From contig CBDAON010000004.1 in assembly GCA_965198065.1 (NCBI GenBank), forward strand, positions 1,568,001 through 1,632,000: a DNA stretch of 64,000 nucleotides. Reading direction: 5' to 3'. The notes beneath the pieces were generated by a model. That model ran no database searches. It worked only from the letters and a program-made list of their open reading frames with translations, and was not told the DNA's origin. Source of the stretch: Longimicrobiales bacterium. GTDB lineage: Bacteria; Gemmatimonadota; Gemmatimonadetes; Longimicrobiales; Gaopeijiaceae. Position 1 is the stretch's first letter; each line of letters begins with the position of its first letter. The position numbers and the translations under genes were made by a program. Positions 2,919 through 32,077 of the stretch are shown here, one piece after another.

Positions 2919-3989
2919 ATGGGAGATCGGGTGGAGTTTCTGGAGAGGCTGCTCGAGGCACCCGGACCCTCGGGCTTCGAGTCCCGCCCTGCCCGCGTCT
3001 GGCGAACGGAGGCCGCCTCCTTTGCCGAGCCCGTCTGGGCCGATGTGCACGGCAACTCCTTCGCGGCGGTGGGCTGGGAGCGGAGGCCGAGGGTCATGCT
3101 GGCCGGCCACGTGGACGAGATCGGTCTCCAGGTGACCCACGTGGACGAGAAGGGATTCGTGTTCCTGGACACGATCGGGGGGTGGGATCCCCAGGTGCTA
3201 GTAGGTCAGCGCGTGCGGATCCTGGGCCGGAAGGGAGACGTGCCGGCAGTGGTGGGCAAGAAGCCGATCCATCTGATCAAGCCCGAGGACCGGAAGAAGG
3301 TGACCGAGATCCAGGAGGTATGGCTGGACCTGGGCGCTTCGTCGGCGGAGGAAGTGGCATCGCTCGGCGTCCGGGTGGGGGATCCGATGGTCCTAGACGC
3401 GCCCTTTCTGCGGCTCCATGGTGACCGCATCGCGTCCCGGGCCATCGACGACCGGGTCGGCGCTTACGTCGTGCTCGAGGCCTTGAGGCTCCTGGCCGAG
3501 GATCCGGCGCCCCACGCCGGCGCGGTGGCCGTCGCCACGGTTCAGGAAGAGATCGGTTACACCGGCGGCGGTGCGCGGAGCTCGGCCTTCCAGCTCGAGC
3601 CGGATGCGGCGGTGGTCGTGGACGTCACGTTCTCCACGGACGTACCCGATGCGAGCAAAAAGGAGCACGGAGAGCACACGGTCGGGGGCGGCCCGGTCCT
3701 CAGCCGGGGGTCGGCCATTCACCCGTTGGTCTTTGATCGGCTGATCGAGGTGGGAGAGAGCGAGAAGATCCCGTGCACGATTCAGGCCGCGCCTCGTGCC
3801 AGCCGTACGGACGCCGACGGGATCTTCCTCGTCCGGGCCGGCGTCCCCACGGGGCTCGTTTCCATTCCGAACCGCTACATGCACTCGCCCAACGAGGTCG
3901 TATCCATCGAGGATCTGCGGCGAGCGGCTCTTCTCCTCGCGGGATTCGTTCGCAGCCTGAAGGCCGATCACAGCTTCGTTCAGGACTGA
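2919..3989 (+). CDS. M42 family metallopeptidase
   Basis: GPSGFE, AGHVDEIG, AIDDRVG, VQEEIG, RYMHSPNE motifs; ATG at 2919 preceded by GGAGG. Confidence 0.9.
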   Translation: MGDRVEFLERLLEAPGPSGFESRPARVWRTEAASFAEPVWADVHGNSFAAVGWERRPRVMLAGHVDEIGLQVTHVDEKGFVFLDTIGGWDPQVLVGQRVRILGRKGDVPAVVGKKPIHLIKPEDRKKVTEIQEVWLDLGASSAEEVASLGVRVGDPMVLDAPFLRLHGDRIASRAIDDRVGAYVVLEALRLLAEDPAPHAGAVAVATVQEEIGYTGGGARSSAFQLEPDAAVVVDVTFSTDVPDASKKEHGEHTVGGGPVLSRGSAIHPLVFDRLIEVGESEKIPCTIQAAPRASRTDADGIFLVRAGVPTGLVSIPNRYMHSPNEVVSIEDLRRAALLLAGFVRSLKADHSFVQD

Positions 3990-15839: not shown

Positions 15840-17237
15840 CTAGTCCCGCGCTCGGATCCCCAACCGCCTCAGGCGGCGGTAGAGGTTGGCGCGGTCGGTC
15901 CGGAGCCTGCGGGCGGCCTCGGCCACGTTTCCGCTTGAGGCGTCGAGGGCGTCTCGGATCAGGCCGGCCTCGAATTCGTCCAGTCGGTCGGTCAGGGACC
16001 CGGTCTCCCTGGAGGGCCTCGGGGCTGGCGGGGCGCTCGTCTTGGTGGTGTCGAGGGTGCGGCGGATGCCCCCGGCTTCCACGGGGCGCCCTGCGTGGAG
16101 GATCGAGAGGCGCTCGAGAAGGTTGATGAGCTCGCGGACGTTTCCCGGCCAGGAGTGAGCCGCGAGCTCCGCGACCGCTGCCTCGGTGAGCTCGGGGGGG
16201 GTGAGGCCGTCTCTTTGTCGCAGCCGCTGCCCGATGTGGTCCACGAGGAGCGGCAGGTCCTCGGGCCGCTCCCTGAGTGGCGGCATCCGAAGGGGAACGA
16301 CGTCGAGTCGGAAGAGGAGGTCCTCCCGGAACCGCCCCGACCCGACGTCGGCGGGGAGGTCCCGGTTCGTGGCGGCGATCACCCTCACGTCCACCCGGAT
16401 CGGATCTCGTCCGCCGAGCCGCTCGAGCGCTCCGCTCTCGAGCACGCGAAGGAGCTTTCCCTGGGCCTCCGCGCCGAGATCCCCCACCTCGTCTAGGAAC
16501 AGCGTTCCCCGGTGCGCCAGCTCGAAGCGCCCGAGGCGCCGCGACGTGGCCCCCGTGAAGGCTCCCCGCTCGTGCCCGAACATCTCGCTCTCCACCAGGT
16601 CCCTCGGGATCGCCGCGCTGTTCACGCGCACGAACGGGCCGCCCGCCCTGGCCGACAACTCGTGTATCGCGGTGGCGGCGAGCTCCTTTCCCGTCCCGCT
16701 CTCGCCGACGATCAGGACGCGCGCCTCCGTCGGAGCCACCTTGGCGATCGTGTCGCGGACGCTCCGCATGGCGGGGCTGGACCCGACCAGGAGCTCGCCG
16801 GGGGCGGTCTCGTCCCGTAGGACCCGGGAGAGGGCCCGGGCGCGGCTCACCTCGAGGGCGCCCCGGAGGGTCACGAGGAGGGCTTCGGCCGAGAGGGGCT
16901 TCTCGAGGAAGTGGAACGCCCCCTCGCGGGTGGCTCGGACGGCGTGGGCCAGGGTGGCCTCGCCACTCATCATCACGATGGGTGTGCCCGGGAGCGCGTC
17001 CCTGAACCGGGGGAGGCTCTCGAGCCCCGAGGCTCCCGGGAGGACCAGGTCCAGCAGCACCGCCTCGGGGCGATGCTCCGCGAGAAGGCTAAGGCCCTTC
17101 TCGGCGCTTCCCGCCTCGACGACCGCGAACCCATTTTCCTCGAGGAGCGACCGGACCATCCGCCGGAGGTTCGCCTCGTCGTCGACGACCAGAATCTTCA
17201 CGACGGGGATCGGCCGGAAGGGGAGCCATCCTTCCAC
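15840..17237 (-). CDS. Sigma-54-dependent response regulator (NtrX/NtrC-like)
   Basis: REC domain (VDDE, LDLVLP, KP), GESGTGKE, GAFTGA, FLDEVG, WPGNVREL, C-terminal HTH; start may be about 17201. Confidence 0.93.
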   Translation of the reverse strand: MEGWLPFRPIPVVKILVVDDEANLRRMVRSLLEENGFAVVEAGSAEKGLSLLAEHRPEAVLLDLVLPGASGLESLPRFRDALPGTPIVMMSGEATLAHAVRATREGAFHFLEKPLSAEALLVTLRGALEVSRARALSRVLRDETAPGELLVGSSPAMRSVRDTIAKVAPTEARVLIVGESGTGKELAATAIHELSARAGGPFVRVNSAAIPRDLVESEMFGHERGAFTGATSRRLGRFELAHRGTLFLDEVGDLGAEAQGKLLRVLESGALERLGGRDPIRVDVRVIAATNRDLPADVGSGRFREDLLFRLDVVPLRMPPLRERPEDLPLLVDHIGQRLRQRDGLTPPELTEAAVAELAAHSWPGNVRELINLLERLSILHAGRPVEAGGIRRTLDTTKTSAPPAPRPSRETGSLTDRLDEFEAGLIRDALDASSGNVAEAARRLRTDRANLYRRLRRLGIRARD

Positions 17238-18589
17238 CGTCCGCTCTCCGGAGGCGCGTTATCCCCCGCTCCGGGGGCGTCGAACGGAAGCCGAACCACG
17301 AACCCCGAGCCCCCACCGTCCCTGTTGAACGCCCAGACGACGCCGCCATGCGCCTGAACGGCCTTCCGCACCAACGGAAGGCCGAGCCCGGTCCCCCGCC
17401 GCTTGGAGGTGAACTCGGGCTCCCACATGCGATCGAGAACCGGAGGTTGCATGCCGGGGCCCCGGTCGAGCACGCGGATCTCGGCCCCCGCCTCGAGCGA
17501 CCGGAGCGTCAGCCGAACGGAACGGCCGGCGCCGCTCTCTGTGGTGGCCTCCTGCGCGTTGGCGAGGAGGTTCCGCACGACGCGCTCGAGAGAGTCAAGA
17601 TATCCCAGCACCTCCACCGGACCCTGCGGCGCGTCCAGGTCGATCGGCACCTCGGGGGTCGAGAGCTTCCGAGCTAGCGATGTCACGAGCTCGGTCAGAT
17701 CGACGCGCGCCGGAGGCCCCTCGACGGGGCGACCGAAGTGGGCGAACGCTCGGGCTAGGGTCTCCAACCGCACGATCTCCTCGCGAAGGACATCCCCCGC
17801 CTCGGCGATCGGGGGCTCGCTCGAACGAGCCACCCGCTCGGCGGCGAGGCGCATGGGGGTGAGCGGATTCTTGAGCTCGTGGGCCACTCCTCTGGCCATC
17901 TCCGCCCAGCTCCGCGTACGGATCCGATCGGCCTCGCGGAGCCGCGCCTCCGCGAGACGCTCGGCTGTGGTGCGGAGCGCGCTCTTGAGGACGCCAAACT
18001 CCCGGATCTCCCTTCGCTCCGCTGCCTCATCAGGGAGAGGGAGCGGCTCACCGGCCCCCAGCGCGCGGGTCCAGCCGACGATCTCCTCGACCGGGCGAGA
18101 GAGCCTCTTCGAGAACCAGGTCGCGGTAACCAGGGCGAGGGCCGCAACGAGGAGGAGGAGGCCCGCGCTCAGAACCGGGACCAGCGACAGGAGCCGTCCT
18201 CCCAGAAAGCCGTAGAGCCTCGAGAACTGCACCGATTGGGCGAGCTCATCCCTGTGACGCTCAGCGACCGCCACGAGATCGGACGGGACGTCCTCCAGAG
18301 CCGAGAGCCCGTCGAGCAGTGCCTGGCCCGTGCGGCCGACTTGCTCCCAGGCGCCGGCGCTTCCCGTGGACCGGACCACCTCGCGGAGGCCGAACGCCCC
18401 CGCGCCGAGCAGGAGGACCGTCGGAACGAGCGCGACGAGCAGGAGGACGAGGAAGGTCTGCGTCCGGAACCCCCGGGAGCGGGTGGAATGCGACAGGACC
18501 GGAGCGCCGCCGGATCGGGCATCAGATCCTGGGCTGCTCCGTCCTTCTCGGGGCTGCGGGATGGGCCGGAAGGACGACGGTCCTGGCAT
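17198..18589 (-). CDS. HAMP-domain sensor histidine kinase (NtrY-like)
   Basis: Two TM segments, AHELKNPLTPM H-box, NLLANA, DRGPG, GTGLGL. Confidence 0.9.
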   Translation of the reverse strand: MPGPSSFRPIPQPREGRSSPGSDARSGGAPVLSHSTRSRGFRTQTFLVLLLVALVPTVLLLGAGAFGLREVVRSTGSAGAWEQVGRTGQALLDGLSALEDVPSDLVAVAERHRDELAQSVQFSRLYGFLGGRLLSLVPVLSAGLLLLVAALALVTATWFSKRLSRPVEEIVGWTRALGAGEPLPLPDEAAERREIREFGVLKSALRTTAERLAEARLREADRIRTRSWAEMARGVAHELKNPLTPMRLAAERVARSSEPPIAEAGDVLREEIVRLETLARAFAHFGRPVEGPPARVDLTELVTSLARKLSTPEVPIDLDAPQGPVEVLGYLDSLERVVRNLLANAQEATTESGAGRSVRLTLRSLEAGAEIRVLDRGPGMQPPVLDRMWEPEFTSKRRGTGLGLPLVRKAVQAHGGVVWAFNRDGGGSGFVVRLPFDAPGAGDNAPPESGRWKDGSPSGRSPS

Positions 18590-18826
18590 GAGACATCCGC
18601 CGGAATCGGGGGCGTCGGGCGGGGCAAGAAAGGTAGGACTCGCCTGCGGCAGCGGGCAAGAAAGCGAAACGACGGCGGAGCGCGACGCCTCGGGACTGCT
18701 CCTCGGTGAGGGTTGCGCTGAACCGGCTGGCCGACTGCCGTCTCCGGCTGAGGGAAGGAAACCCGGTGGAGCGGCGGCTTCGCGACGGGACGTGGGGGAG
18801 GTTCCCGCGCGCGTGACGGAGCCGGT

Positions 18827-20170
18827 TCAGGGATCGGGCGGAGCCCTCCGCAGGCATTCGGGGCAGTAGCGCCAGCCGCGCCTCAGGACCCGACCGCAGA
18901 TACACGCCTGCACCCTGCACCATCCGCAGTAGGGGCAGCCCCGACCGTCTCTCGGTACGCTCCCTCCGCAGCGTACGCAGGGAAGCGACTCGCCGGGATC
19001 CTCCCGGAGCACGCGTGCCACCTCGTGAAGCGTCGTGACCCCCTCGGACACCTTCCGCCGGGCGTTCTCGGCCATTGTGGCCATTCCGGCTTCCTCGGCC
19101 AGGCGCCGAAGCTCCCCGCCGGCCGCGCCTCTCGCGATGGCGTCCCGAATGCCCTCCGTGATGGTGAGCACCTGGAAGACCCCGATCCGGCCCCGATATC
19201 CATGATGACAGGCGGGGCACCCGGCGGGGTGCCCGTCGCAGCGGCGGCGGCTGCGCCGGATCAGCCGTTGGGCGACGATGCCCGAGAGCCCTCCGGCCAG
19301 GAGGTGCGGCTAGACCCCCATCTGGAGCAGGCGGGTGATCCCCGAGGGAGCGTCGATCGTGTGGACGGTCGACAGCACGAGGTGGCCCGTGACGGCCGCG
19401 GCCATCGCGATCTCGGCGGTCTCCCGATCGCGGATCTCCCCAATCATGATCACGTCCGGATCCTGCCGAAGCACGGAGCGGAGCGCCGAGGCGAACGTCA
19501 GACCCGAAGCCGGATTCATCTGCACCTGGTTCACGCCGGGGACGCGGTACTCGACCGGGTCCTCCAGCGTGACGACGTTCGAGGCCACGCGGTCGACCTC
19601 GCCGAGGGCGCCGAATAGGGTTGAGCTCTTCCCGCTTCCCGTGGGGCCGGCGGTGAGGACAACGCCCCGTCCGCCGCCAACCAGGGCGCGTACGCGGGAG
19701 AGGTCCTCCGGGGAGAACCCGAGGTCGGAGAGGTTCGCTGGAACCGCGCGCGGGTCGAGGAAGCGTAGGACCGCCTTCTCGCCTCCCTCGGCGGGGAGGG
19801 TCGAGACGCGGATGCTCAGGGACCGCCCCCCGTGAACGAACGGGAGCCCCCCGTCCTGGGGGCGTCGCTTGACCGAGATGTCCATCCCGGCCAGAACCTT
19901 GATGTGGGAGAGCACGGAGGCTCGCGCCCCCACGGGAAGGTCGGCCACCTTCTGGAGGACGCCGTCGATCCGCTCTCGCACGACGAGCTCTCCGGGGCCG
20001 TGCTCGACGTGCAGGTCGCTGGCGCCCGCGTCCACGGCGCGCCGGAGAAGGAGATCCACGACGCGAACCACAGGGGCGCCGGTAGGGTTGTCGTAACGGG
20101 CCTCCGGCTTCGCCGCTGAGGCCGTGCGGTCGGGACCGGAGGGAAGGGCGCGAGCTAGATCGGTCACCTC
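18827..20170 (-). pseudogene. GspE/PilB-type ATPase, 3' part (separated from its 5' part by an insertion; in-frame TAG at 19310-19312)
   Basis: ASDLHVE, PQDG, GPTGSGKSST, TLEDPVE, LRQDPDVIMIGEIRD, TGHLVLSTVH; MGV*PHLLA..AQRL continues in frame to a C-terminal double Zn ribbon. Confidence 0.88.
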
Positions 20171-20180
20171 GCTGACCGGG

Positions 20181-20546
20181 ATGGCACCGACCGCAGCCCT
20201 CTCGCCTGGCCGCTTCGGGAAACTGTTTCGTGGCGGCATGAGTGGCGGCGGCATGGGCGCCGGTGTCGTGAGTCCGACGATCGTGGGGAACACCGCGACC
20301 GCCGAGAACCTCTTTCCCGGCGCCGGCGTTCGGGCCGAGGGTCCCGGGGGCGGCGGGTTCTTCGACGGGATGAACGAGCTCGAGAAGGCATTCCTTCTCA
20401 CGGCGGGGCTGGGCACCATAGCCGACATCGGCGGCGGCATCTACGACCGCGTGAAGCAAAGCAAAGACGAGAAGCGGGAGCGCGAGCGAAAGGACCGGGC
20501 TGGCCGGTCCATATCAGCCGTCCTCAGCCGGCCGAGGAGCTACTAG
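20181..20546 (+). CDS. Small Gly-rich phage protein, putative ejection/internal virion protein (possibly 5'-truncated)
   Basis: Gly-rich stretch, hydrophobic AFLLTAGLGTIADIGGGI, charged C-terminus; first gene of the cassette. Confidence 0.5.
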   Translation: MAPTAALSPGRFGKLFRGGMSGGGMGAGVVSPTIVGNTATAENLFPGAGVRAEGPGGGGFFDGMNELEKAFLLTAGLGTIADIGGGIYDRVKQSKDEKRERERKDRAGRSISAVLSRPRSY

Positions 20547-20549
20547 GAG

Positions 20550-21398
20550 ATGGGTATCGGGGCGGTGCTGGGCGGCGCGGCCGAGGGAGCCGGGCCGGGA
20601 CTCGGCCGGTTCTCGAACGCCCTCCTCCAGGTGATGGGCTCTCAGCAGCAACGCCGCGGCATGGAGGAGCAGCGGGAGTTCAGGGCCTCCGAATCCGCGT
20701 ACCGCCGGCATCGTGACCAGGTCAGCGACGCGGCCAGCCGTGAGGCCCTCGATCTCCAGGAGCGCACCCTCGAGGCGAGGACGAGGGATGCGGACCGGAG
20801 CTTCGCTCATGCTCTCCGAGCGGGTGGTTGGGATTTCGACTATCACCCCGAGGGGGCGCCCGCCCCGGCGTCCTCCATGACGATCGGCCCCCCGCGTCCC
20901 ATCGTCGGCCCCGGGGGAGGACCGGCTGCGGAGCCGGCGGCCGCGGGCGAAGGCATGAAGTTCGAGCTCCCCCCCCGCCAGGGCGTGGGCGACCGAATCT
21001 CGCGCCGGTTCACGGTCGGAGACTACAACCCCGACCAGGACCCAGCCCTGCAACGCCGGCTTCGAGAGATCGAGGCGACCGCGGCCGCGAGGCCCGGGCC
21101 CGCAGGCCCGACGATGTCCGTCGGAGGGATGACGGCGCCGACCACCCCGGCGGGCCGCGCCACCATCGAGGACCACATGAACTGGCGGTCGTCCCTGCCC
21201 GGCCAGACGCCGGCCGGAGCTCGGGACCCCGCGCGGGATCAGCTCCTCATCGGTGGAGCTCTCGCCCGGATGCAGGGTGAAGACGGTGAGATCGACTATC
21301 TGCGCCTCGAGTCCGTCCTCGACGAGCTCCGCCGGCGTCCCGGCGTGACGAACGACGACCTGGACCTGATTCGGGATCGCTTCACCCGGCAGTACTGA
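20550..21398 (+). CDS. Putative phage ejection protein
   Basis: AGGAG RBS; Gly/Ala-rich N-terminus followed by a Q/R/E coiled-coil-like stretch; TGATG coupling to the giant gene. Confidence 0.55.
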   Translation: MGIGAVLGGAAEGAGPGLGRFSNALLQVMGSQQQRRGMEEQREFRASESAYRRHRDQVSDAASREALDLQERTLEARTRDADRSFAHALRAGGWDFDYHPEGAPAPASSMTIGPPRPIVGPGGGPAAEPAAAGEGMKFELPPRQGVGDRISRRFTVGDYNPDQDPALQRRLREIEATAAARPGPAGPTMSVGGMTAPTTPAGRATIEDHMNWRSSLPGQTPAGARDPARDQLLIGGALARMQGEDGEIDYLRLESVLDELRRRPGVTNDDLDLIRDRFTRQY

Positions 21399-24300
21399 TG
21401 GCCTCGCACGACCCTTGGGACGCGCTCTTCGGAGCGGGAGAGCTGGGCGAGCCCGGAGCTCCCACGGCCACCGCTCCTCCCGCCGGCTCTCCGGACCCCT
21501 GGGACGATCTCTTCGGAGCTCCCGCCTACGCCCCGCCGCCGGCCGCGCCCGAAGAGCCCCGCATGTCCATCGGCGCGCGGATCTCCGCGCCGTTCAGAGC
21601 AGGCTGGGAAGGGCTCAGGCGCGGTAGTGTCGCAACGGTGCCCGAGCTCGCGGGCAACGTGCTCGAGCAGTTCGGAGCGGAGGAGCTCGGTGGCCGCATA
21701 GAGGCGGGCGCCGAGCGGCGCGGGTCACGGTTGGCCGAACAGTGGGAGAGCCCGCAGTTCCGTGACGCCCCCGTCTCGTGGCTGGCCGAGAACCTCGGAC
21801 AAGCACTGCCCACGACGGTCCCGTCGATCGCCGGCGCAGCCGTCGGCTCCTTGCTCGGTCCGGCCGGCACGATCGCCGGCGCCGCCATCCCCGCCTACCT
21901 GATGGGTGTCGGCGACATCCGGGGCGAGCTCGAGGACGCGGGCATGGAAGAGGGCGCCGGCATGAGTGCCCTCACCCTGGGGGGAGCCGTCCCCTACGCG
22001 GCGGCCGACATCCTCATGCCCGCCCGTGTCGGGCGCGCGCTGGCGAGCGGCGGGGCCAAACGTGGATTCGGGGCGATGTTCCGCGCCGCGATGCGCGGCG
22101 GCGCCGAGGAGACGTTCGCGGAGGGTGCGCAGTCCCTCGTATCGCAGGGCGCGGCCGCGGTCGGCACCGGCCAGGAGATCGACCTCCGCCGGATCGGTGA
22201 GGAAGCGGTGCGCGGCGGCGCTGCGGGCGTCTTCCTCGGTGGCGGCGGCCAGGCGGCGGCATCCGTGCTCCCTGCCCGCGATACCGCCGACCCGTCAGCA
22301 GACCCGGGGGCCGCCCCCACCGCGCCCCAGAGAGACGAGGACCCGTGGGACTCCCTACCCGGCCACCCCGGCGGTCCCGGAGGCCGTACAGGACGACGTC
22401 GTGGCTCCGCCGGCGGCTCCCGAAACGGAGCTTATGCCAGAGGAGGCCGCACAGAATCTTCCGCCTGTAACTGAATCTGAAACAGAAACAGGCCCTGCAG
22501 TTTCTGAAACGCCCACGTGGGCCCGGGAGTCGATCGTCGACGAGGATCCGGACCAGGCTCCGGCTCCCCCCGAGCGCCGACAGCGTTCGATCTTTCCCGG
22601 GGACGACCGGAAGGTCGAGACCGAGTACACCGTGGTCGAGGCGGACCGGCTCAAGGCCAGTCACACGGCGAATTACGCGCAGCGGGCGCCCGAGGAGTTC
22701 CCGGCCGAGATCCAGGGCCGTGCCTATCACGGGCAGCGCGGCCGCCAGGCGCGCGAGCACACCGAGCAGATCGTGTCCGGCTTCGATCCGGACCGGGCGC
22801 TGGACCGGACGTCGTCGGCTGCCGAGGGCCCGCCGATCGTGACGCCGTCCGGGGTCGCGGTGGCAGGCAACGGCCGGATTATCGCGCAGCAGCGCCTCTA
22901 CGAGAGCGCCCCCGAGAGGGGAACCGAGCTGAAGGGTGCGCTCCAGGAGCGGGCGGCGGACTTCGGGCTCGATCCTGCCCAGGTCGCCGGTATGGAGCGG
23001 CCCGTCCTCGTCCGGCGGATCGTGGACCCCGAGGTGGACGTCACGAACGTCGAGCAGCTCCGCGAGCTCAACGCGAGCTCGGACCAGCCCATCGGGAAGA
23101 CGAAGGATCCGCTCTCGGAGGCGCAGGGGAAGGCGGCGCAGTTCCGCGAAGCCCGGGGGGCTCTCGACCACTTCGCGGCCACGGCCGATCCGGACGCGAC
23201 GATCCGGTCCTACCTGGGGACCGGGTCGGGGCGCGACTTCCTGGGCGAGCTCGTCGACGACGGGGTCATTTCCAAGGGGGAGCGGGCCCGATTCGCGGAC
23301 GCGACGACGGGGGTGGCCACCGAGGAGGGGCGCCAGCTCATCGAGCGGATGTTCTACGTGGCGGCGATCGGGGACCCGGATGTGATCTCGCGCGCGCCGC
23401 CGGCCGTGCTCCGCAAGCTGGACACCTCCCTACCGGCGATCATCCGCGCGGACCGGATCGGTGGCGGCTGGGAGATCGGGCCGCTCGTGAGGGAGTCGCT
23501 CGACCTTCTGGCGGGGGCGAGGGCGGGCGACATGAATCTCGACGACCTGGTCGCTCAGCGCGACTTCACCCGCCCGGCTCCCGACGAGCACGTGGTCGAG
23601 ATGGCCCGGTTCCTCGAGAGCGGGAAGGCCAACGTCCGCGACGCCTTCCGGGCCTACGCGAACCAGGCGGAAGCGTTCACCCGGGGCACCGCGTCCGACG
23701 ATCTCTTCGGGTTCGAGCCGGCGGGCCCCGAGGAGTCTCAGTCCATCTTCGGGAAGGCCGCGCTCGCGCCACGTGGCGATCCGCGTACGGCGCTCAGGCA
23801 GATGCTTTCCTTGCCGGGCGAGCCCTCCCAGGGGTCGGCGGCCGAGCCCGAGCGGATCTTCGGCCGGCGGGAGGAACGGGAACGCCAGGAGTGGGAACGG
23901 CTCGGCGAGGGCCTGTCCGAAGAGGATGCGGCCACCAGAGAGCGGATGTTCCCGTTCATCGCCAAGGCGCGGGAGAACCAGAAGCTGCAGTTCAGCGAGG
24001 AGGAGCTCGCGGCGGCCGCCGGCCGGGAGCAGCGCAGCCCCTACGATTTCCTAGAGACCAGGGCTGCGCGTGAGCGGGCCGCCAACGCTCCGCAGGACAC
24101 GTACCTGATAGACACTCCGGAGCGGCTCACGCTGCGCCGTAAGATCGCCGACCTGCTCTACAACACCCGCATCGCGGCGCGGAAGCGGGAGAAGCGGGCG
24201 TTTGTGGTCATCGGGCCCGCCGGCGCCGGCAAGACCCGGGTCGTCTCCGGCCGGCTCATCGACGAGCATGGCGCCCTCGAGATCGACGCCGACCTGGCCA

Positions 24301-27300
24301 AGCCTCACCTGCCGGAGTACGAGGGCGGCATCAACGCCAAGGGCGTCCACGTCGAGTCTTCCCTGATTGCGGAGGAGCGCGTGATGTCCCAGGCACTGGC
24401 GGCCGGCGACAATATCGTGCTGTCGAAGATCGGTAAGAACACCGCCTCCATGAAACCCATCCTCGACCAGCTCAGGGAAGCCGGGTACGTCACGGATCTC
24501 TACCTGGTCGATCTCGACCCCATGCTGGCCGCCGGTCGGGCGCTGACACGCTTCTACGAGGGTGGCCGGTTCGTCGACCCGGTCTATGGGATCGAGGATG
24601 TCGGCCGGAAGCCCCAGCAGACGTTCGTCGACTTGAAGAGCGATCCGGCTGTCAGTAGATTTACTTGGTTTGACAACGATGTGGAGAGGGGGCAACCGCC
24701 CCGCCTTGTAGAGGAAGGAAAGAATGGCCAAGCGCGATCCGATGGACTTCTCTTTCGCGAAGGGCCTCAAGCGGGAGGACTTCGAGAGGGACGGGATCCT
24801 GGACCTGGAGGGTATGGCCGACGCGGCCGCGGAGCTCGGGAGGAAGGCGGACCGGGCCGACGCGGCGAAGGAGAAGGCGGCACAGCAGTAGGTCCGTCCG
24901 CAGTACATCCGCTGGCCCCCACCGCCGAGGTATCCGAGCAGCTCCGTAGCGCCGGCACGTTCGCCGAGGGCACATCGATGGAGGCGCCCAAGGCCACGGC
25001 CATCGTGCGCGATCTCCAGAAGGTCCTGCACGTGCAGCTCGAGGGCCTGAAGGTCTCCGAGGGCAAGCTCCAGAAGCGGGGCATCTTCCGCCGGGCTCTC
25101 GCACAGGTGGACCCCCGGGCCCAGGTCGTACGCGCCGTCTCCCTCTCCGACGTCGCCTCGATCGGCCACGAGTACGGCCACCTCATGCAGAAGCTCCTCC
25201 TGGGCGCCTCGGAGGCCGGGGGGATCGACAACGCCACGCTCGCGCGCCTCCCGGGGGCCGTGCGCGGCGAGCTCCAGGACCTTGCCCAGGGGATCAGCAA
25301 CGAATCGCTCACCGAGGGATGGGCCGAGTTCTGGCGGATCTACCTGGACAACCCCGACACCCTCGGGACCGAGGCGCCCAACGTGCTCAACCACGTCGAG
25401 GGCCTCCTCGAGACCCACCCGGCCGTCAGGAACGCATGGACGGACGCCCGTGAGCAATGGAAGCTGCACCGCGACGCCTCGCCCCAGGCCAGGGTCCGGA
25501 GCCACATATCGGTCGGAGAGGGCGATCCGGACGCGCTCTCGATCGACGGTAAGTGGATGCGGTTCCGAACGAACGTGCTGGACGACTTCGAGGCGATCCG
25601 GAAGGTGGTCGCCCATGTGCGGGAGCGGACCGGCGACGAGCTCACCATCGCGGAGGACGTGGAGACGCTCGCCAGGCTGTCGCGCGGTGCGTCCGGGATC
25701 GCCGACATGTTCATCGGCGAGAAGCAGGGCGACCGCTTCATCGGCGGTCAGGTGGACTTCGGGACGCTCGAGCGGAGGCGGAAGAGCCTGACCGAGATCC
25801 TAGACCCCGTGGAGGACCAGCTCGACGACTTCCGCGATTACATCGTGGCCAGGCGCGCGCAGGAGCTCCACGGACGCGATCTCCTCACCGGGATCCGGGA
25901 CGAGGACGTCAAGTGGACGATCCGTCACCTCGAGGACCGCTACGGCGAGAGCTTCAAGCCGGCCTTCGACGAGCTTCAGGAGTACAACAAGGCGCTGCTT
26001 CGGTTCCTCGTCGACTCGGGTGTGATTTCAGAGGAGACCTTCGACCAGATCGTCGAGGTGAATCAGAATCACGTGCCGTTCTACCGGGTCCGCGAAGGGG
26101 GAGGCGGAGCCCTCGGCGCCGGATCCGGGTTCGGGACGCTCTGGAGCCCGGTCAAGCGGTTCAAGGGCAGCGGCCGGGACATCATCGACCCGCTCGAGAG
26201 CATCCTCAAGAACACGTACAACTACGTCCAGGTCGCACAGAACCAGCGAGTCTCGACCGCCCTCGCGAGCCTGGCCGAGAAGCCGGGCGTCGGCGACCTC
26301 TTCGAGCAGCTCCTCACGCCGATGAAGCGGCAACAATTCACCGTCGGGGAGATCGAGAAGGACCTGAAGGAATCCGTTCCCGGCTACGAGCAGCTCCTCG
26401 AGAAGCTCGAGAAGGCCGGCGTCGACCCGAGCTCGGAGCTCTTCGCCGTCTTCCGGCCGGGTGACTACCACGGGAAGGAGAACACGATCTCCGTCCTGGA
26501 GGAGGGGAAGCGGAAGTGGTTCGAGGTCGACCCCGAGCTCTACAAGGCGCTCGAGGGCCTGAACACCGAACAGCGTGACGCTTGGGTGCGGGCGATGTCC
26601 GCGCCGGCGCGCTGGCTTCGGGCCGGCGCCACGCTCAACCCCGCCTTCATGATCCGTAACTTCATACGCGATCAGCGCATGGCGTTCGTCCAGAGCGAGC
26701 ACGGGTACCGACCCGTCTGGGATTTCGCGCTCGGGGTCTTCGAGGCGGTCAAGAAGGGCGAGACGTACGAACAGTTCATGGTTTCCGGCGCGCACCGCGG
26801 GACCATGCTCGGTCTCGACCGGGATTCGCAGCAGCGCAACCTGCAGAAGCTCTTGAAGAGCGACGGTGTGCCGAACGTCCTCAAGAATCCGCTCGACATC
26901 CTGCGGGCCTTGTCCGAGCTGTCCGAGACGGGCACACGGATGGGCGAGTTCATGCGGGCCCGGGAGAAGCTCGGGGAATCGGGGGAGGCGCTCCAGAAGA
27001 GCGGTGCGGCCGCCCGGGAGGTGTCAGTCGACTTCGCCAGGCACGGTGCTAAGACGACCGCGCTTAGGGGGATGGCGGCTTTCTGGAACGCGCGGATGCA
27101 GGGCTACGACCGTTTGGGGCGCGCGGTGAAGAAGAGTCCCGTGAAGTTCATGGCGACGACGTTCGGTGCGGTGACGCTCCCCTCCATGCTCCTCTACTTC
27201 GTCAACCGTGACGAGCCGGAGTTTTGGGAGATTCCGCAGTGGCGGCGCGATCTCTTCGACATGGTGAAGGTGAACGACACCTGGCTCAGCATCCCGAAGC

Positions 27301-27938
27301 CGTTCGAGCTGGGGCTCTTGTTCGGGACGCTCCCGGTCCGCGTGCTCTCGGCGATCGAGAACACTCCCGGCGGTTCGGAGGAGCTCCGGAGGTTCTTCGA
27401 GGACACGCTCTCGAAGGAGCTGACCTCGATCGGGCCGGCGCCGACGGCCGTCATGCCGCTCATCGAGAACCTCACGAACTGGAGCTTTTTCCTCCAGCGG
27501 CCGATCGTGCCACGGAGCGAGGAGAACGTCCGCGACCGCGAGCAGGGGAACGAGCGGACTTCCGAGATCGCGAAGCTCCTGGCCCGGTGGTCGCCGGGCC
27601 CCGAGGGGATTTCTCCCCGCTCGATCGACAACCTCCTCTATTCGTGGACGGGAGGACTCGGCCGCCTCGCAAGCCGTGGGGTGGACCTGGGCGTCGACGT
27701 CGCTACGGGGAAGCCCCCCGGGCCGACCAGGCAGGCTGCGGACTATCCGGGGATCCGGGGCGTCACCATCCGCACACCCGGGCTCTCGTCAGAGTCCGTC
27801 GAGCGCCTCTACCGGGAGCTCGCGAAGGCTCGCACCGCTCGGGCCACGCTGCGCCACTTCGAGCGCGAGGGCCGCACGGAGGACTTCGAGCGTGAGGCCA
27901 GGGACCCCGAACAGGCGGAGCTCCGGGCACAGGCAACC
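21398..27938 (+). CDS. Large polyvalent protein (~2180 aa): Gly/Ala-rich N-terminus, DdrB-like ParB domain, zeta-toxin-like P-loop kinase, HExxH metallopeptidase-like region, LPD38; +1 frameshift near 22358 and 3'-truncated
   Basis: YTVVEADRLKASH/PIVTPSG..VAGNGR/PVLVRR (~22620-23020); GPAGAGKT..IDAD..HVESS..GRFVDP (~24200-24580); GHEYGH (25164-25181) with EGWAEF; IPKPFELG..ISPRSIDNLL..WTGGLG (~27220-27665). Confidence 0.78.
24633..24661 (+). promoter_or_regulatory. Internal sigma70-like promoter within the end of the zeta-toxin domain
   Basis: TTGAAG (24633-38), 17 bp, TAGATT (24656-61) in a locally AT-rich patch, 62 bp upstream of the nested ATG. Confidence 0.55.
24724..24891 (+). CDS. Nested +1-frame 55-aa protein MAKRDPMDFSFAKGLKREDFERDGILDLEGMADAAAELGRKADRADAAKEKAAQQ; candidate antitoxin/immunity protein
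   Basis: GAGGAAGGAAAGA RBS before ATG; 51 of 55 codons end in G/C in this frame, while the host frame becomes A/T-ending and G/R-rich; below the ORF track length cut-off. Confidence 0.7.
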   Translation: MAKRDPMDFSFAKGLKREDFERDGILDLEGMADAAAELGRKADRADAAKEKAAQQ

Positions 27939-28418
27939 CCTCGTGTACGCTGCCCGGAGGCCCTCCTGGAGCGCCGACGGCGTAGCTACGGCCGCTGCGA
28001 CCCTACGGCCGCTCTGGAACTGGAGGTCGTCCACAGTCGAGAGGTCGAGCGGGTCCTCCATGGCGACGAGGAGCGAGCGCCCGGTGAGGCGCAGGGGGAG
28101 TACCCTTCGCCTGCGCGCGAACCCGGCGTTGACGAGCCTCAAGGCTTCGGCCCCGGGCCGGAGGGGCCCGGCCTCGAACGGAAGCCCGAGCTGCCTGGCC
28201 AGGGTGCTGGCGACCTCGTCCTCGCCAGCGACCCCGAGCCGGGCAATCACCGCGCCGAGCCGCTCTCCGGATTCGCGTTGCGCCGCGAGCGCCCGCTCGA
28301 GGTCGCGGGGCCGGAGTGTCCCCTCCTCGACGAGGAGCGCGCCCAGCACGCGCGTTTTCGAGTCGGCGGCGTCGGGGAGGGCGGTCCTGGGGGCCACGCC
28401 GGACGATAAGGACGCCAC
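27939..28418 (-). pseudogene. GspE/PilB-type ATPase, 5' part (MshEN/T2SSE_N domain)
   Basis: Tandem MshEN-like motifs RVLGALLVEEG..LERALAAQ and RLGAVIARLG..LARQ, then VAMEDPLD..DDLQFQSG..LRAAY; ends at the insertion. Confidence 0.85.
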
Positions 28419-28569
28419 CGGAGCGGAAGGATGGGTCGATGGGTCGGTGGCGCTCCGGTCGGCGGTGTCCCCTGGGGGCGACGAGCCGGCTACGCCCGTC
28501 CAATCTCCGCCAGAACGCCGTCCCGACGTCGCCGCCCTGGAGTGGAGCTCGCGGGGCCGTCCGAGGGTG

Positions 28570-29127
28570 CTAGCTGGCCGGCCGCAGATCTATCGCAACG
28601 CGGACCGTAATGTGCCCGACATCGGCGCGCTCCCTCACCGCGTCCCGAAGTCGCTGCTCCATCTTCTTGTATGCTCCCATCACCCCGGAGCGGAGGTCTC
28701 CCCGGAGGATACGCAGAGCGTTGGCGTCCGGGCTGCTCGTCTTCGAGACCTTCCGGGTTTCGTCCAGACGGTCGGGCCGAATCTCGAACGGGCTGAGCCC
28801 GACGTCGTCGGGCCGATCATGGTCCAGGTACGAGACCGTGACGCTCACGTCTCCACGAGCGTGGTGGCTCGAGATGTCTCCAACGGTCTGGAACCTCTGT
28901 GCGAGGCGCCGCATCTCTAGACCGGACGCCGTTGCCACGTACGCCTTCTCGATGAGCCCGAAGATCCTGCGCAGGCGCTCGGCCGGCGTGGCGTCACCCG
29001 TCGGCACCTCCGTGCCGAGCTCGCGAGCCGCGGCCTCCCGCGCGAAGTCGTCTCGGCCCTCATCGTCCCGGCTGCGCTGGCGGTCGATGTGCTCGAGAAT
29101 GCGGTCCGGGTTCGTGCGAAAGCTCAT
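28570..29127 (-). CDS. Hypothetical protein
   Basis: Coherent protein-like ORF starting MSFRTNPDRILEHID with GGAG RBS and high GC3. Confidence 0.7.
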   Translation of the reverse strand: MSFRTNPDRILEHIDRQRSRDDEGRDDFAREAAARELGTEVPTGDATPAERLRRIFGLIEKAYVATASGLEMRRLAQRFQTVGDISSHHARGDVSVTVSYLDHDRPDDVGLSPFEIRPDRLDETRKVSKTSSPDANALRILRGDLRSGVMGAYKKMEQRLRDAVRERADVGHITVRVAIDLRPAS

Positions 29128-29459
29128 GTACGACTCCACGCGGGCATGAGGGACGGGAGTGGGGTGGTGGAGGATAACCGCGCGTGCGGGAGGGGCCAAG
29201 AGCGCCGTGCCCGTGCCCCTGCTGAGCCCACGGGGCCGCCAACTCGGAGCTGCGGGAAGTGGGTCTTCCGGCGGAGACGCGGCCGACGGGTGGTCGGGCC
29301 TACCGGCCCCTTCCCGTCCGGGTCGTCAAGATCCTGGTGCTCCGGGTCCGCGCTTTCGAGCGCTGCGCGAGAGCCCGGCGGCATGGGTGCTGCGGCCCTG
29401 TTGTTCCTGGTCATCCCGGCGCTGATGCCCAAGAGCCAGGGCCACCCATGGTGAGCGGA

Positions 29460-29948
29460 TCAGCGTGGGCCGAAGATCAGGCTCGCCCGGCTGCCCTCCC
29501 CGATTCCCCTTGAGGAAAACCATGCCCGCGGGACCTCCAACGCGAACATTGCGGGGCGATCGGAAAAGTGGAAGTACTCCGACTGCGGGTCCATCTGGCT
29601 GATGTTGATGACCGTGAACGCCCGATCGAGGAACGCCACGTCGAGCGGGATCAACGTGTCCTTCATCCAGAACGAGCGAATGGCCTCGTCGGTCCAGACG
29701 AAGAGCATCCCCTCCCCTTCCGCCAACTGCTCGCGGTACATGAGGCCCTGCTGCCTCGCGTCCTCAGTGTCCGCCACCTCAGCCGTGACGGTGTCCGCGC
29801 CGAAGGCGACCCAGGCGTACCCCTGAGGTGGGAACGCGCCCGCGCCGTCGGTACCGGACGGCCCGTCGTCGCCGGCACAGGCGAGGACGGTGAGCGAGAG
29901 CAGGTGAGTGAAGAGCACGGAGCGTATCGGCACGGTCGCAGCCTCCAT
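29460..29948 (-). CDS. DUF192 domain lipoprotein
   Basis: LAC lipobox; AEVADT..GLMYR..GMLFV..FWMKDTLIPLD..ALEV. Confidence 0.9.
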   Translation of the reverse strand: MEAATVPIRSVLFTHLLSLTVLACAGDDGPSGTDGAGAFPPQGYAWVAFGADTVTAEVADTEDARQQGLMYREQLAEGEGMLFVWTDEAIRSFWMKDTLIPLDVAFLDRAFTVINISQMDPQSEYFHFSDRPAMFALEVPRAWFSSRGIGEGSRASLIFGPR

Positions 29949-30058
29949 GGGTTAATGCTAAGTTAGCCGGGCCGTACTGCAACTCGGCTCTGGGGCCCAT
30001 CCGCCCCCGGGTCTCCAGGTGACCGCGTGGCGGTTGACAGCGAAATGGGGTCTTCAAG

Positions 30059-30316
30059 ATGCTGGATCCGGAGCTCCTGGAAATCCTGGTTTGCCCGGAA
30101 ACAAAGGCCCGGGTGCACCTGGCGGACGACGCTCTCGTCGAGCGGGTCAACGGCGCGATCGACGGAGGCAACCTGACGAACCGAGGCGGTCTCAAGGTGG
30201 GGCAGCGGATCGATGGCGGCCTCGTCCGCGAAGATCGCAAGCTTCTCTACCCGATCATCGATGGGATCCCGGTGATGCTCATCGACCAGGCCCTGCCCCT
30301 CGAGGGCCTCGTCTAG
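30059..30316 (+). CDS. Trm112 family protein
   Basis: LLEILVCP..YPIIDGIPVML. Confidence 0.85.
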   Translation: MLDPELLEILVCPETKARVHLADDALVERVNGAIDGGNLTNRGGLKVGQRIDGGLVREDRKLLYPIIDGIPVMLIDQALPLEGLV

Positions 30317-30562
30317 CTACCTGCTGAAGCACGCGACGTTCCGGCACGCCCAGCGGAACGTTCGCCGTGGAGGGCAGCGGGCCGATGGTCGGTTCCGATC
30401 CTTCTCCTCACTCACCATCGGCGGGTGCTCCAGGAACGGGGCCCTCATCATGTGGATCCCCGGTACGTTCGTTTTCTGGATGGCCATGACCGTCGTATTC
30501 TTCCGGTGGACGAAAGACGCGTACCGATCCTGGAAGGCCGACCCCGAAGCTCCGGCGCCCCT

Positions 30563-30778
30563 ATGATGTCTCTCATCGTCTTTCACCGCGGCCTCATCGC
30601 GACGGCGATCGTCTTCTGCTTCGGCTACGCCGGTTGGGAGATCCTGTCGTTTACGCGGGGGGGCGGGGCGCTCCCGCTCGTGATCGGGTGTATCTTCGCA
30701 ATTCTCGGTGGGGCGCTCGGGTACTATCTGGCGCGTCTCACGTACTTCCTGGGATACGACTCGCGGGACGAGGGGTAG
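30563..30778 (+). CDS. Small two-TM membrane protein
   Basis: MSLIVFHRGLIATAIVFCFGYAGW..; two hydrophobic helices. Confidence 0.55.
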   Translation: MMSLIVFHRGLIATAIVFCFGYAGWEILSFTRGGGALPLVIGCIFAILGGALGYYLARLTYFLGYDSRDEG

Positions 30779-30929
30779 CGCTCAAACGGTACGGTCGAAG
30801 GGATCGGTGGTGGGGGCCCATCACGGTCAGGCCGGCGATGAGGTTTTCGGCGAGCACCTCCACCGGCCCGAGGTGATCCCGCTCACCCAGGGCGCTGCGA
30901 AGCGATCGGCACCTGGGGCTCCGGGGTTC

Positions 30930-31139
30930 CTAGCTTGTTCGGTCGCGTGGCTCCTGACGGCGGGCGTTGAGATAGCGACGCAGCACGAAAATCCCGATCC
31001 CGACCGACAGTAGGATCGGAACGGCGGCCATCAGGAGACCGCCCCAGAACATGCCGGTCATCAGCGCGGCGTCCGCTTGCACGGCCTGGTCCACTGGTCC
31101 TCTCAGACTCCGGCCCGTCTGGCGTGCCGACCATCGCAA
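30930..31139 (-). CDS. Small membrane protein at end of cox operon (start uncertain, possibly degenerate)
   Basis: One TM GMFWGGLLMAAVPILLSVGIGIFVL followed by RR. Confidence 0.35.
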   Translation of the reverse strand: MRWSARQTGRSLRGPVDQAVQADAALMTGMFWGGLLMAAVPILLSVGIGIFVLRRYLNARRQEPRDRTS

Positions 31140-31161
31140 TACGCGCCTGAGCGCTGGAAGG

Positions 31162-31437
31162 TCAGCGGAACTCCTGCATGACCACGAGGATCAGGATCGC
31201 GATCAGGGGGATCGGGACCGCAGCCAGGAGCCAGAGTCGCTTCTGCTCGAAGCGCAAGTGCATGTAGTAGAGTGCGACGAGGAGCGCGCTCGTTATCGAG
31301 ATGATCACGAGCAGCACGATGGCGAGCCACTTGAGCCCGATCGCAAGAGAGACCACAACCTTCCCCGCCATCAGGACCGCCAGAACCCCGAAGATGAGCA
31401 TGTAGGGCGGATGAACCGTCTTTTCACCCGTTTGCAT
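31162..31437 (-). CDS. coxD: Cytochrome c oxidase subunit IV family
   Basis: Y..IFGVL, LVALYYMHLRFE. Confidence 0.85.
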   Translation of the reverse strand: MQTGEKTVHPPYMLIFGVLAVLMAGKVVVSLAIGLKWLAIVLLVIISITSALLVALYYMHLRFEQKRLWLLAAVPIPLIAILILVVMQEFR

Positions 31438-31450
31438 GTGAGCTCCCCTC

Positions 31451-32077
31451 CTAGATCAGGTAGACGATGGTGAAGAGCACGATCCACACCAAGTCCACGA
31501 AGTGCCAATATAATCCCACGATCTCCACGGGGCCCAGCTTCCCCGAGCTGAATGCCCCCGTCCGGGCGCGAAGCAGCACCCCGGTCAGCGCGAACACGCC
31601 GATCGTCACGTGCGTCCCGTGGAAGCTCGTCATGAGGTAGAACGTGGAGCCGTACAACGGCCCGCCCTCCGCCGCGTATAGATCGACGACCGGAACGAAG
31701 CCCTCGCGTGCTAGGCCGACGTACTCGTACAGCTGGATCCCCACGAAGGCCGAGCCCATGATGATCGTAGCCAGGAGCCAGAACTGAAGCCCCTTCTGGT
31801 CGTCCTGCTGGATCGCGGCGTACGCCTTCACCATCGTCACCGAGGAGCAAATCAGCATGAAGGTGTTGAACGCCGTGAGCTCGATGGAGAGGACTGCCCC
31901 GGGCTCCGGGAACTGATCCGGGTGGGCGAAGCGCAGGATGATGTACGCCCCGATGAGGGAGGTGAAGAACATCACCTCGGACAAAAGGAAGATCCACATC
32001 CCGAGCTTCAGGTTGTAGAACTCGAACGTGCGCTCGAGCTGAGTCTGGCTCCTCACCGCCGCCGCGTGACTGGTCAT
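31451..32077 (-). CDS. coxC: Heme-copper oxidase subunit III
   Basis: KLGMWIFLLSEVMFF, FHGTHV, LYWHFVDLVW. Confidence 0.93.
   Translation of the reverse strand: MTSHAAAVRSQTQLERTFEFYNLKLGMWIFLLSEVMFFTSLIGAYIILRFAHPDQFPEPGAVLSIELTAFNTFMLICSSVTMVKAYAAIQQDDQKGLQFWLLATIIMGSAFVGIQLYEYVGLAREGFVPVVDLYAAEGGPLYGSTFYLMTSFHGTHVTIGVFALTGVLLRARTGAFSSGKLGPVEIVGLYWHFVDLVWIVLFTIVYLI

Follow-up and report, generated by a model that had tools for sequence, protein, structure and literature searches.

Phage polyvalent proteins gather several domains in one late-gene polypeptide; passages of the paper on them list a ddrB-ParB domain, an LPD38 domain, an HExxH motif and a Zeta-like or RelA/SpoT module, and mention both remnants acquired by hosts and a cassette-like variability (Iyer et al. 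2017, PMC5512222). The LPD38-bearing gp47 of phage phi24B is virion-associated and is presented as a proposed ejection protein (bioRxiv 10.64898/2026.04.10.717836). Chromosomal phage DNA exchanges with infecting relatives, as reported for defective prophage remnants (PMC8136500), and capture of foreign DNA through the non-homologous end-joining route (NHEJ), with fill-in of 5′ overhangs, has been shown in S. meliloti (Dupuy et al., PMC6379672). Here we describe a phage-derived insert within a 64,000-nucleotide stretch of a Longimicrobiales genome (GCA_965198065.1, contig CBDAON010000004.1, positions 1,568,001 to 1,632,000), hereafter the window, which is part of a 2.87-Mb contig in a 3.05-Mb genome that is 88% complete. 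The insert is a 7.8-kb fragment of podovirus-type ejection genes that sits, with no host loss, in a pilus-type ATPase gene that was likely dead already. We consider it probable that the fragment was captured once through Ku and LigD, that recombination with phages has since refreshed it, and that this refreshing swapped a Zeta-like module together with a predicted antitoxin gene nested in it.

The insert, its boundaries and its genes

The two halves of the host gene and the ends of the insert are placed as follows.

27942..28418, reverse strand: 5′ half of the host ATPase gene, carrying the MshEN domain, with an uncertain start codon (PF05157, E=1.7e-20; syntenic same-genus ortholog)
18827..20173, reverse strand: 3′ half of the host ATPase gene, T2SSE plus double zinc ribbon, with an internal TAG at 19310-19312 (PF00437, PF12773)
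20174..27941, forward strand: inserted phage fragment, 7,768 bp counting one copy of the doubled CT
20172..20173, no strand: CT dinucleotide, host copy, repeated at 27940-27941 (sequence; graph fork after 20173; Ser codon of the ortholog)
20174..20389, forward strand: first 216 bp of the insert, the same in both alleles and likely containing the left crossover

Pfam matches confirm that an MshEN half and a T2SSE-ATPase half with its zinc ribbons flank the insert, as proposed in an earlier note made from the sequence alone, and the gene is one frame in most relatives aligned rather than naturally two genes. In the alignment, 2 residues separate the 'AY' and 'E/D-L' motifs of these relatives. 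The syntenic ortholog of one same-genus genome reads uninterrupted across the site as Y-A-S-E-V-S-D-L (codons TAC GCG AGC GAG). From its Y-A-S-E it follows that the intact window gene read AAY-T-S-EVTDL, that the insert spans 20174-27941, that no host bases were lost and that CT stands at both joints as a 2-bp duplication. The split and the in-frame join of the earlier note therefore hold, and its exact join (AAY-T-R-EVTDL) was 3 bp off. A 5-bp CCTCG at both ends was considered as a target duplication and ruled out, as it puts the join out of frame. The longest repeats shared by the insert ends are 7-bp words, and GC content does not set the insert apart (0.64-0.73, against 0.65-0.74 in the flanks). 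The last bases before the right joint (27933-27939) encode A-T, whereas L-P or H-D stands at this place in close phage relatives; these bases could be non-templated filler or mere divergence of the parent.

The insert carries three genes, the last with several recognizable domains.

20181..20546, forward strand: g1, first gene of the trio, small and Gly-rich, 121 aa counted from its first ATG, probably 5′-truncated
20550..21398, forward strand: g2, middle gene of the trio, 282 aa, intact, its stop overlapping the g3 start (TGATG); homologs at 37-56%
21398..27939, forward strand: g3, polyvalent ejection-type protein gene, with a frameshift near 22360 in this genome and ~53 C-terminal aa missing
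22602..23021, forward strand: ddrB-like ParB domain in g3 (PF18763, E=4.7e-18)
24177..24722, forward strand: Zeta-toxin-like P-loop kinase domain in g3 (PF06414, E=4.3e-11; profile match to 1GVN, E=4.6e-10)
25164..25181, forward strand: HExxH (GHEYGH) zincin-like metallopeptidase motif in g3, kept in the G144 homolog
27216..27752, forward strand: LPD38 domain in g3 (PF18857, E=2.2e-35)

Three coupled genes of rising size on the strand opposite to the ATPase gene, the last of them cut off, had been recognized in the earlier note, and this arrangement is confirmed: g3 lacks the ~53 C-terminal residues of its relatives and runs on for 157 codons into the antisense host gene, to 28409. No family match to g1 was found in Pfam and PHROG scans; the first trio genes of relatives encode 158-229 aa. 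At least two conflict domains lie in the one large g3 polypeptide, with ddrB-ParB, Zeta_toxin and LPD38 all above cut-off. The same scans of the insert open reading frames (ORFs) found no integrase or transposase, and their sole head-related match is a weak PHROG 'minor head protein' over the Zeta-like stretch. Apart from that weak match, the picture of an insert free of integrase, transposase, capsid genes and terminal repeats is borne out, the end repeats being at most 7 bp. The variable modules of g3 and of several homologs are bracketed by 'xLAP' motifs (ALAPR / HPLAPT-like; window ~23770 and ~24910), which might, speculatively, be self-processing sites for the HExxH peptidase.

Domains, metagenome synteny and the gene order of HTVC034P support the phage origin and ejection-trio identity of the insert, which we take to be phage-derived on these sequence comparisons. 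The same small-medium-giant trio occurs on metagenome contigs, with tail-like genes upstream and a holin or M15 endolysin downstream; relatives of g3 thus occupy a late, virion-gene position, in contrast to the stranded copy in the window. Among named phage records the closest are genomes of 35-39 kb. In HTVC034P the homolog gp44 (31% identity to the third gene) is likewise a third gene, placed after an 'internal virion protein B-like' gene. Homologs of g3 at 70-72% sit on 48-49-kb contigs, and some close relatives are labelled as proteins of Gemmatimonadota metagenome-assembled genomes. The variable slot of relatives holds RelA/SpoT, GGDEF or GNAT domains, replacing Zeta or alongside it, with RelA/SpoT in G144. 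Podoviral ejection trios include T7 gp14-16 and P22 gp7/20/16, to which no sequence link of the window trio was found, no test aimed at one having been made. By analogy with phi24B gp47, the trio proteins may be packaged in the virion and ejected.

No other part of the phage was detected in the 88%-complete genome: Terminase_6N was not found, 138 ORFs from related phage loci matched only g3 or generic host genes, and no second copy of the insert was found. The marks of an integrated prophage were not found: there is no integrase and no att repeat at the ends, and no head and packaging genes were detected in the element or in the genome at this completeness. We regard the insert as neither a prophage nor a demonstrated mobile element, and it is probably not a receptor knockout.

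Two alleles and the module exchanged between them

The stretch is present in five public runs (X1-X5) from two studies, as contigs and not reads. The insertion is real and not a chimeric assembly. The joints, which the earlier note had proposed checking for spanning sequence, are bridged in both studies: X1 contigs cover 16000-26321 and 26942-32000 with 0 differences and cross both junctions, X3, from the second study, bridges both, and X4 and X5 bridge the left one with 0 differences. As for the coverage check proposed along with it, X1 shows no fork, and there is a depth step in X2, from the same sample, where a flank contig of depth 14.2 stops at 20173 and an insert contig of depth 6.0 starts at 20144. 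The 30-base overlap of these contigs is read as a graph fork, with a second allele leaving exactly at the expected empty-site position.

A different allele, B, with the same junctions, marks a second host lineage and was found in X3, from the second study. The comparison bears on two features of g3.

24020..24863, forward strand: exchangeable module made up of the Zeta-like kinase and the nested gene, with another in its place in allele B
24724..24891, forward strand: 55-codon gene overprinted on g3 in its +1 frame, a predicted antitoxin, with the 'EEG' codons of g3 forming its ribosome-binding site (RBS)

In X3, 32 listed differences (of 33) all fall within 20390-21106, and none is listed for 2,571 bases of flank or for the opening 216 bp of the insert; the chance of zero differences in 216 bp at the adjoining rate is 6.5e-5. 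Pieces of X4 and X5 differ at 1 of 4,266 bases in the flanks and at 113 of 3,616 in the insert, counted on printed contig pieces only, some of which overlap. The frameshift near 22360 is absent from X3 and X4, and X3 has ~870 other letters in place of 24020-24863. Allele B is also encoded by a separate 308,895-bp contig. Its g2 differs at 17/282 aa and agrees with X3 at 14/14 comparable changes, and its g3 (P0157, 2,349 aa) is in frame. From 27580 over the right junction to the end of the 157-residue antisense tail, P0157 shows no change; its Zeta-like module is another one (~55%), sharply bounded by identical residues on either side. Overall, the interior of allele B is ~3% diverged and its Zeta-like module is cleanly exchanged, at ~55% aa identity. 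Window positions 22420-22512, an A+T-richer linker of g3, form a second hypervariable patch, with 103 other letters in X3 and X4.

Because the flanks are near-identical and the ends identical while the interior is diverged, point mutation in place cannot explain the contrast. Independent captures with identical ends are unlikely, and we infer that a single capture, with later homologous replacement by related phage DNA, gives the best fit, phage DNA being the presumed donor of the second allele. With host flanks near-clonal from lineage to lineage, the capture is recent on the scale of strains, and yet its interior has already been replaced. The earlier view of a real, aged event is thus upheld in its first part and qualified in its second.

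Within the module, the Zeta-like domain retains equivalents of the Walker A Lys and of the catalytic Asp67 and Glu100, and the nested ORF is overprinted directly behind it. Third codon positions have a GC content of 0.93 in the nested ORF and of 0.42 in the main frame, and no other ORF of this kind occurs in 1,840 codons. Homologs (36%) lie at the same position in G004 and at a second locus in this genome. Searching the protein collection for homologs of the nested peptide gave no candidate, which is what one would expect where gene callers pass over nested frames; the peptide has no family match and no usable Atlas match, and one weak genome match.

The generality of the nested frame was examined in 25 viral loci among the matches listed, of which 17 distinct ones, with the domain embedded in a long ORF, were kept (L088, L089, L090, L092 and L098 were dropped as close kin, and L081, L094 and L097 as loci where the domain ends its ORF). 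A +1 ORF extends over the domain end in 17/17 of these loci, with its stop 31-57 codons later and an ATG lying between codons -45 and +10, and it is open with at least 20% E/K/D in 12/17, against 6/425 control windows. At four-fold sites of the main frame, codons ending in A number 195/465 inside and 1,111/8,081 outside, and they are more frequent inside in each of the 17 loci among the matches listed; the nested region of this window shows the same (16/43 against 40/999). R/G-rich control windows have only 79/799, so a plain R/G-rich linker does not explain the signal.

The Zeta-like domain has a small adjacent partner gene with a coding signal, as in type II toxin-antitoxin pairs. Position, size, charge and co-swapping lead us to predict that the nested gene is the antitoxin of the domain. 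Of the toxin/immunity module suggested in the earlier note, the import of a toxin-like module with a likely partner is supported, and an immunity role of that partner is predicted. Three genomes of the order have free-standing Zeta-like genes with a small +1-frame gene after them, which suggests that the module may once have been a gene pair swallowed by a giant ORF. A complex prediction for the domain (38 rows) and the nested peptide (3 rows only) scored 0.01, with the partner at pLDDT <50, and so weighs neither for nor against a pairing. A possible second overprinted +1 ORF (101 aa, with an RBS) lies upstream of GGDEF in a related polyvalent gene (L045:~3615-3920). Titles and abstract openings in the literature yielded no description of a nested partner gene or of an in-place module swap.

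The same genes lend themselves to a defensive explanation, which we consider unlikely, though the best placed of the alternatives: the locus would be a selected anti-phage cassette in which the nested gene neutralizes an injected Zeta-like effector and swaps track phage variants, in the manner of orphan immunity arrays. In this allele a frameshift interrupts g3 ahead of the toxin domain, whereas the nested gene and its RBS are undamaged, and passages of PMC5512222 propose defensive use of host-acquired polyvalent remnants. Fragments with a Zeta C-terminus and a nested ORF, mostly without Walker A, recur on contig C4 of this genome and in G004, G144 and G333. At C4:1486199-1487321 there are three ~57-bp repeats of Zeta C-terminal DNA with nested-ORF homologs. 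Scattered copies of this kind resemble an orphan-immunity collection and also fit debris in mobile islands. Neutral debris is expected in a genome with many insertion sequence (IS) copies and broken genes; frameshifts affect several orphan nested ORFs, the Zeta-like domain is matched in only 4/314 family genomes, and the toxin domain of allele B is still in frame. A promoter/terminator scan returned 0 sites and no promoter-like site, which counts against our own account as well.

Three of these host loci have further features. At G000 C4:1485985-1487330 (L029) lies a broken DUF1501-like gene whose 3′ half is found on contig C1 at ~10588; after it come a 210-bp element end (80% copies at C4:1344949 and 2867846), the three Zeta C-terminal repeats and a cas3-like helicase gene recognized by eye, no Cas1 being found. 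In G144, C13:520279-529617 (L040, L041) and C3:234198-242427 (L074) hold a 4.2-kb fragment of the same phage gene with RelA/SpoT in the variable slot, and two Zeta-end/nested-ORF units lie inside an 8.2-kb block present twice at 99.98% identity.

A broader and doubtful extension of the defensive idea would be that ejection proteins carry overprinted antitoxins, that bacteria harvest units of toxin end and antitoxin as acquired immunity, and that the capture acts as a self-updating landing pad, a recombinase-free and CRISPR-free memory of phage effectors. If so, the landing pad would swap in the module of whichever related phage last injected its DNA.

Route of entry and state of the target gene

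A full-length Ku gene and an 863-codon LigD frame lie side by side on contig C1, which is assigned to this genome because it shares IS copies with it and holds the other half of the DUF1501-like gene. With Ku and LigD encoded and no long homology at the joints, end joining is the likely route of entry. The recombinase-free capture claimed in the earlier note is supported by the insert having neither integrase nor transposase and no long end repeats.

Quite improbable is a second route, by which the insert would be a non-autonomous mobile unit moved in trans by a CT-core recombinase (an IS110 bridge or similar), with the second allele of X2 as its precise excision. The CT at both ends, a 1-in-16 match by chance, accords with this, as do the absence of host loss, the resident IS110 copies with CT-core ends, and the fork and depth step of X2 at the junction. 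A guide match was sought between the empty-site and circle-joint sequences and the 5′ non-coding end of the full-length IS110 copy, and was rejected at 6 bases or fewer. The right end cuts inside a structural gene, no second copy of the insert was found in the genome, and no resolvase, large serine recombinase or Cas1 was found in the genome at 88% completeness.

The full-length IS110 copy (G000 C4:2683238-2684408) has a CT core and a left end starting with TGTAT, like IS621, with partial copies at 1721391 and 2057428. Several IS families of 0.9-1.4 kb have at least 15 near-identical copies each, and a same-genus genome is ~1.6 Mb at 92% completeness. Heavy IS expansion and 34 tyrosine-recombinase matches, set against so small a relative, have the look of ongoing genome reduction. 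At G000 C4:1710874-1713237, 18 tRNA genes form an array within 2.4 kb.

The target gene is likely a relic that offered a safe landing place and was dead before insertion. The internal TAG (19310-19312), noted earlier as an independent nonsense codon, is real, being covered with 0 differences by X2 and X4 contigs, and it is common to all alleles seen, including the deeper X2 flank contig, which appears to include the second allele. Amber recoding was rejected, as no CUA tRNA occurs among 50 tRNAs and orthologs have variable sense codons there. Exact look-ups for further alleles of the host halves found none, with only 1/10 queries present in the collection.

Pili are known phage receptors, and the earlier note had the insertion destroy a working motor, perhaps selected as receptor loss. 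Such a capture, selected as a knockout of a pilus or secretion motor that serves as phage receptor, is very unlikely. The ortholog is intact and in one frame in most relatives aligned, as that idea needs, but the TAG is shared by the alleles, the sister-species ortholog is independently truncated, without its 3′ third, and the canonical pilB is truncated after 'RRVPQ'. No PilC/GspF (T2SSF) or secretin gene was found in the 88%-complete genome, with the controls matched in 13/14 and 6/14 genomes. One PilB-like paralog keeps an 871-codon frame.

An assembly artefact, either a chimeric insertion or an allele B that is a mosaic of host and free-phage sequence, could draw on low depths (3-6) and on contigs alone, and is highly improbable given junctions bridged in two studies, variants common to X3, X4 and X5, and a separate 309-kb assembly that encodes the same allele and junction.

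We thus favour a sequence of events in which the host ATPase gene would have acquired the TAG and been dead before capture. A phage fragment would then have been joined in once by Ku/LigD end joining, with the CT duplicated, possibly by a 2-base fill-in. Homologous recombination with related phages would have refreshed the interior, the ends being retained, and in doing so may have swapped the Zeta-like module together with the nested predicted antitoxin gene.

Several observations weigh against this account. The second allele of X2 is known only from the fork and the depth step (14.2 against 6.0), with its path not displayed, X1 shows no fork from the same sample, and all runs were seen as contigs. 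The parent phage was not found: outside the two alleles the best match is ~77% aa, and scans of viral contigs with the g3 and g2 proteins and of genome contigs with g2 confirmed no relative. The genome has 34 tyrosine-recombinase matches, none of them inside the window, and IS110 copies whose ends show a CT core, and a 2-bp duplication is a 1-in-16 coincidence that fits other routes too. As to the nested gene, a strict start-site test is weaker (5/19 against 12/499, kin included), a relaxed one gives 3/19 against 33/484 (p=0.15), and substitution patterns show loss of main-frame constraint with no clear purifying selection in the +1 frame. In the domain, the columns of the UNAG-contact residues of Zeta/PezT kinases, Thr118 and Arg120, hold Ile and Lys (weak pairwise alignment, E=0.15); as these residues are not kept, we name the domain Zeta-like and assign no substrate.

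Comparison with described systems

The locus offers a natural snapshot of phage DNA that enters a chromosome without an integrase and that related phages have probably rewritten since, in hosts that are nearly clonal. In phage polyvalent proteins, an out-of-frame gene following the Zeta-like domain looks general (17/17 loci among the matches listed), and it may explain how the cell that produces the phage survives the making of a toxic effector carried in the virion. Alleles A and B provide cognate and non-cognate pairs for a comparison of specificity.

Host-acquired polyvalent remnants and exchange between prophage and phage are already known (PMC5512222, PMC8136500). As far as titles and abstract openings go, neither the overprinted partner gene nor a module swapped in place between near-clonal hosts has been described. 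As in the passages of PMC5512222, g3 bears the same domain set in one polypeptide; here the remnant splits a host gene, and two alleles display the swap in place. Those passages describe no nested partner gene, and the word 'overlap' is absent from the main text. The three genes match the podoviral ejection trio of HTVC034P (gp46-44) in being coupled, of rising size and beside tail genes, with the difference that the window trio is truncated and stranded in a chromosome.

Like the defective prophage remnants described in PMC8136500, the insert appears to exchange with incoming relatives. Unlike them, it has no att sites or integrase and its ends are not prophage ends, and the flow would run from phage to chromosome. 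Compared with the NHEJ capture reported in PMC6379672, the genome shares Ku and LigD, a clean junction and a possible 2-base fill-in; here the fragment is natural phage DNA and the mechanism is the likely one rather than an observed one. The module resembles free-standing Zeta-like genes trailed by a small +1-frame gene. Against the epsilon/zeta system (PezAT), as presented in PMC3062530, equivalents of the Walker A Lys, Asp67 and Glu100 are shared, whereas Thr118 is replaced by Ile and the partner gene lies downstream, overprinted and without a family or Atlas match.

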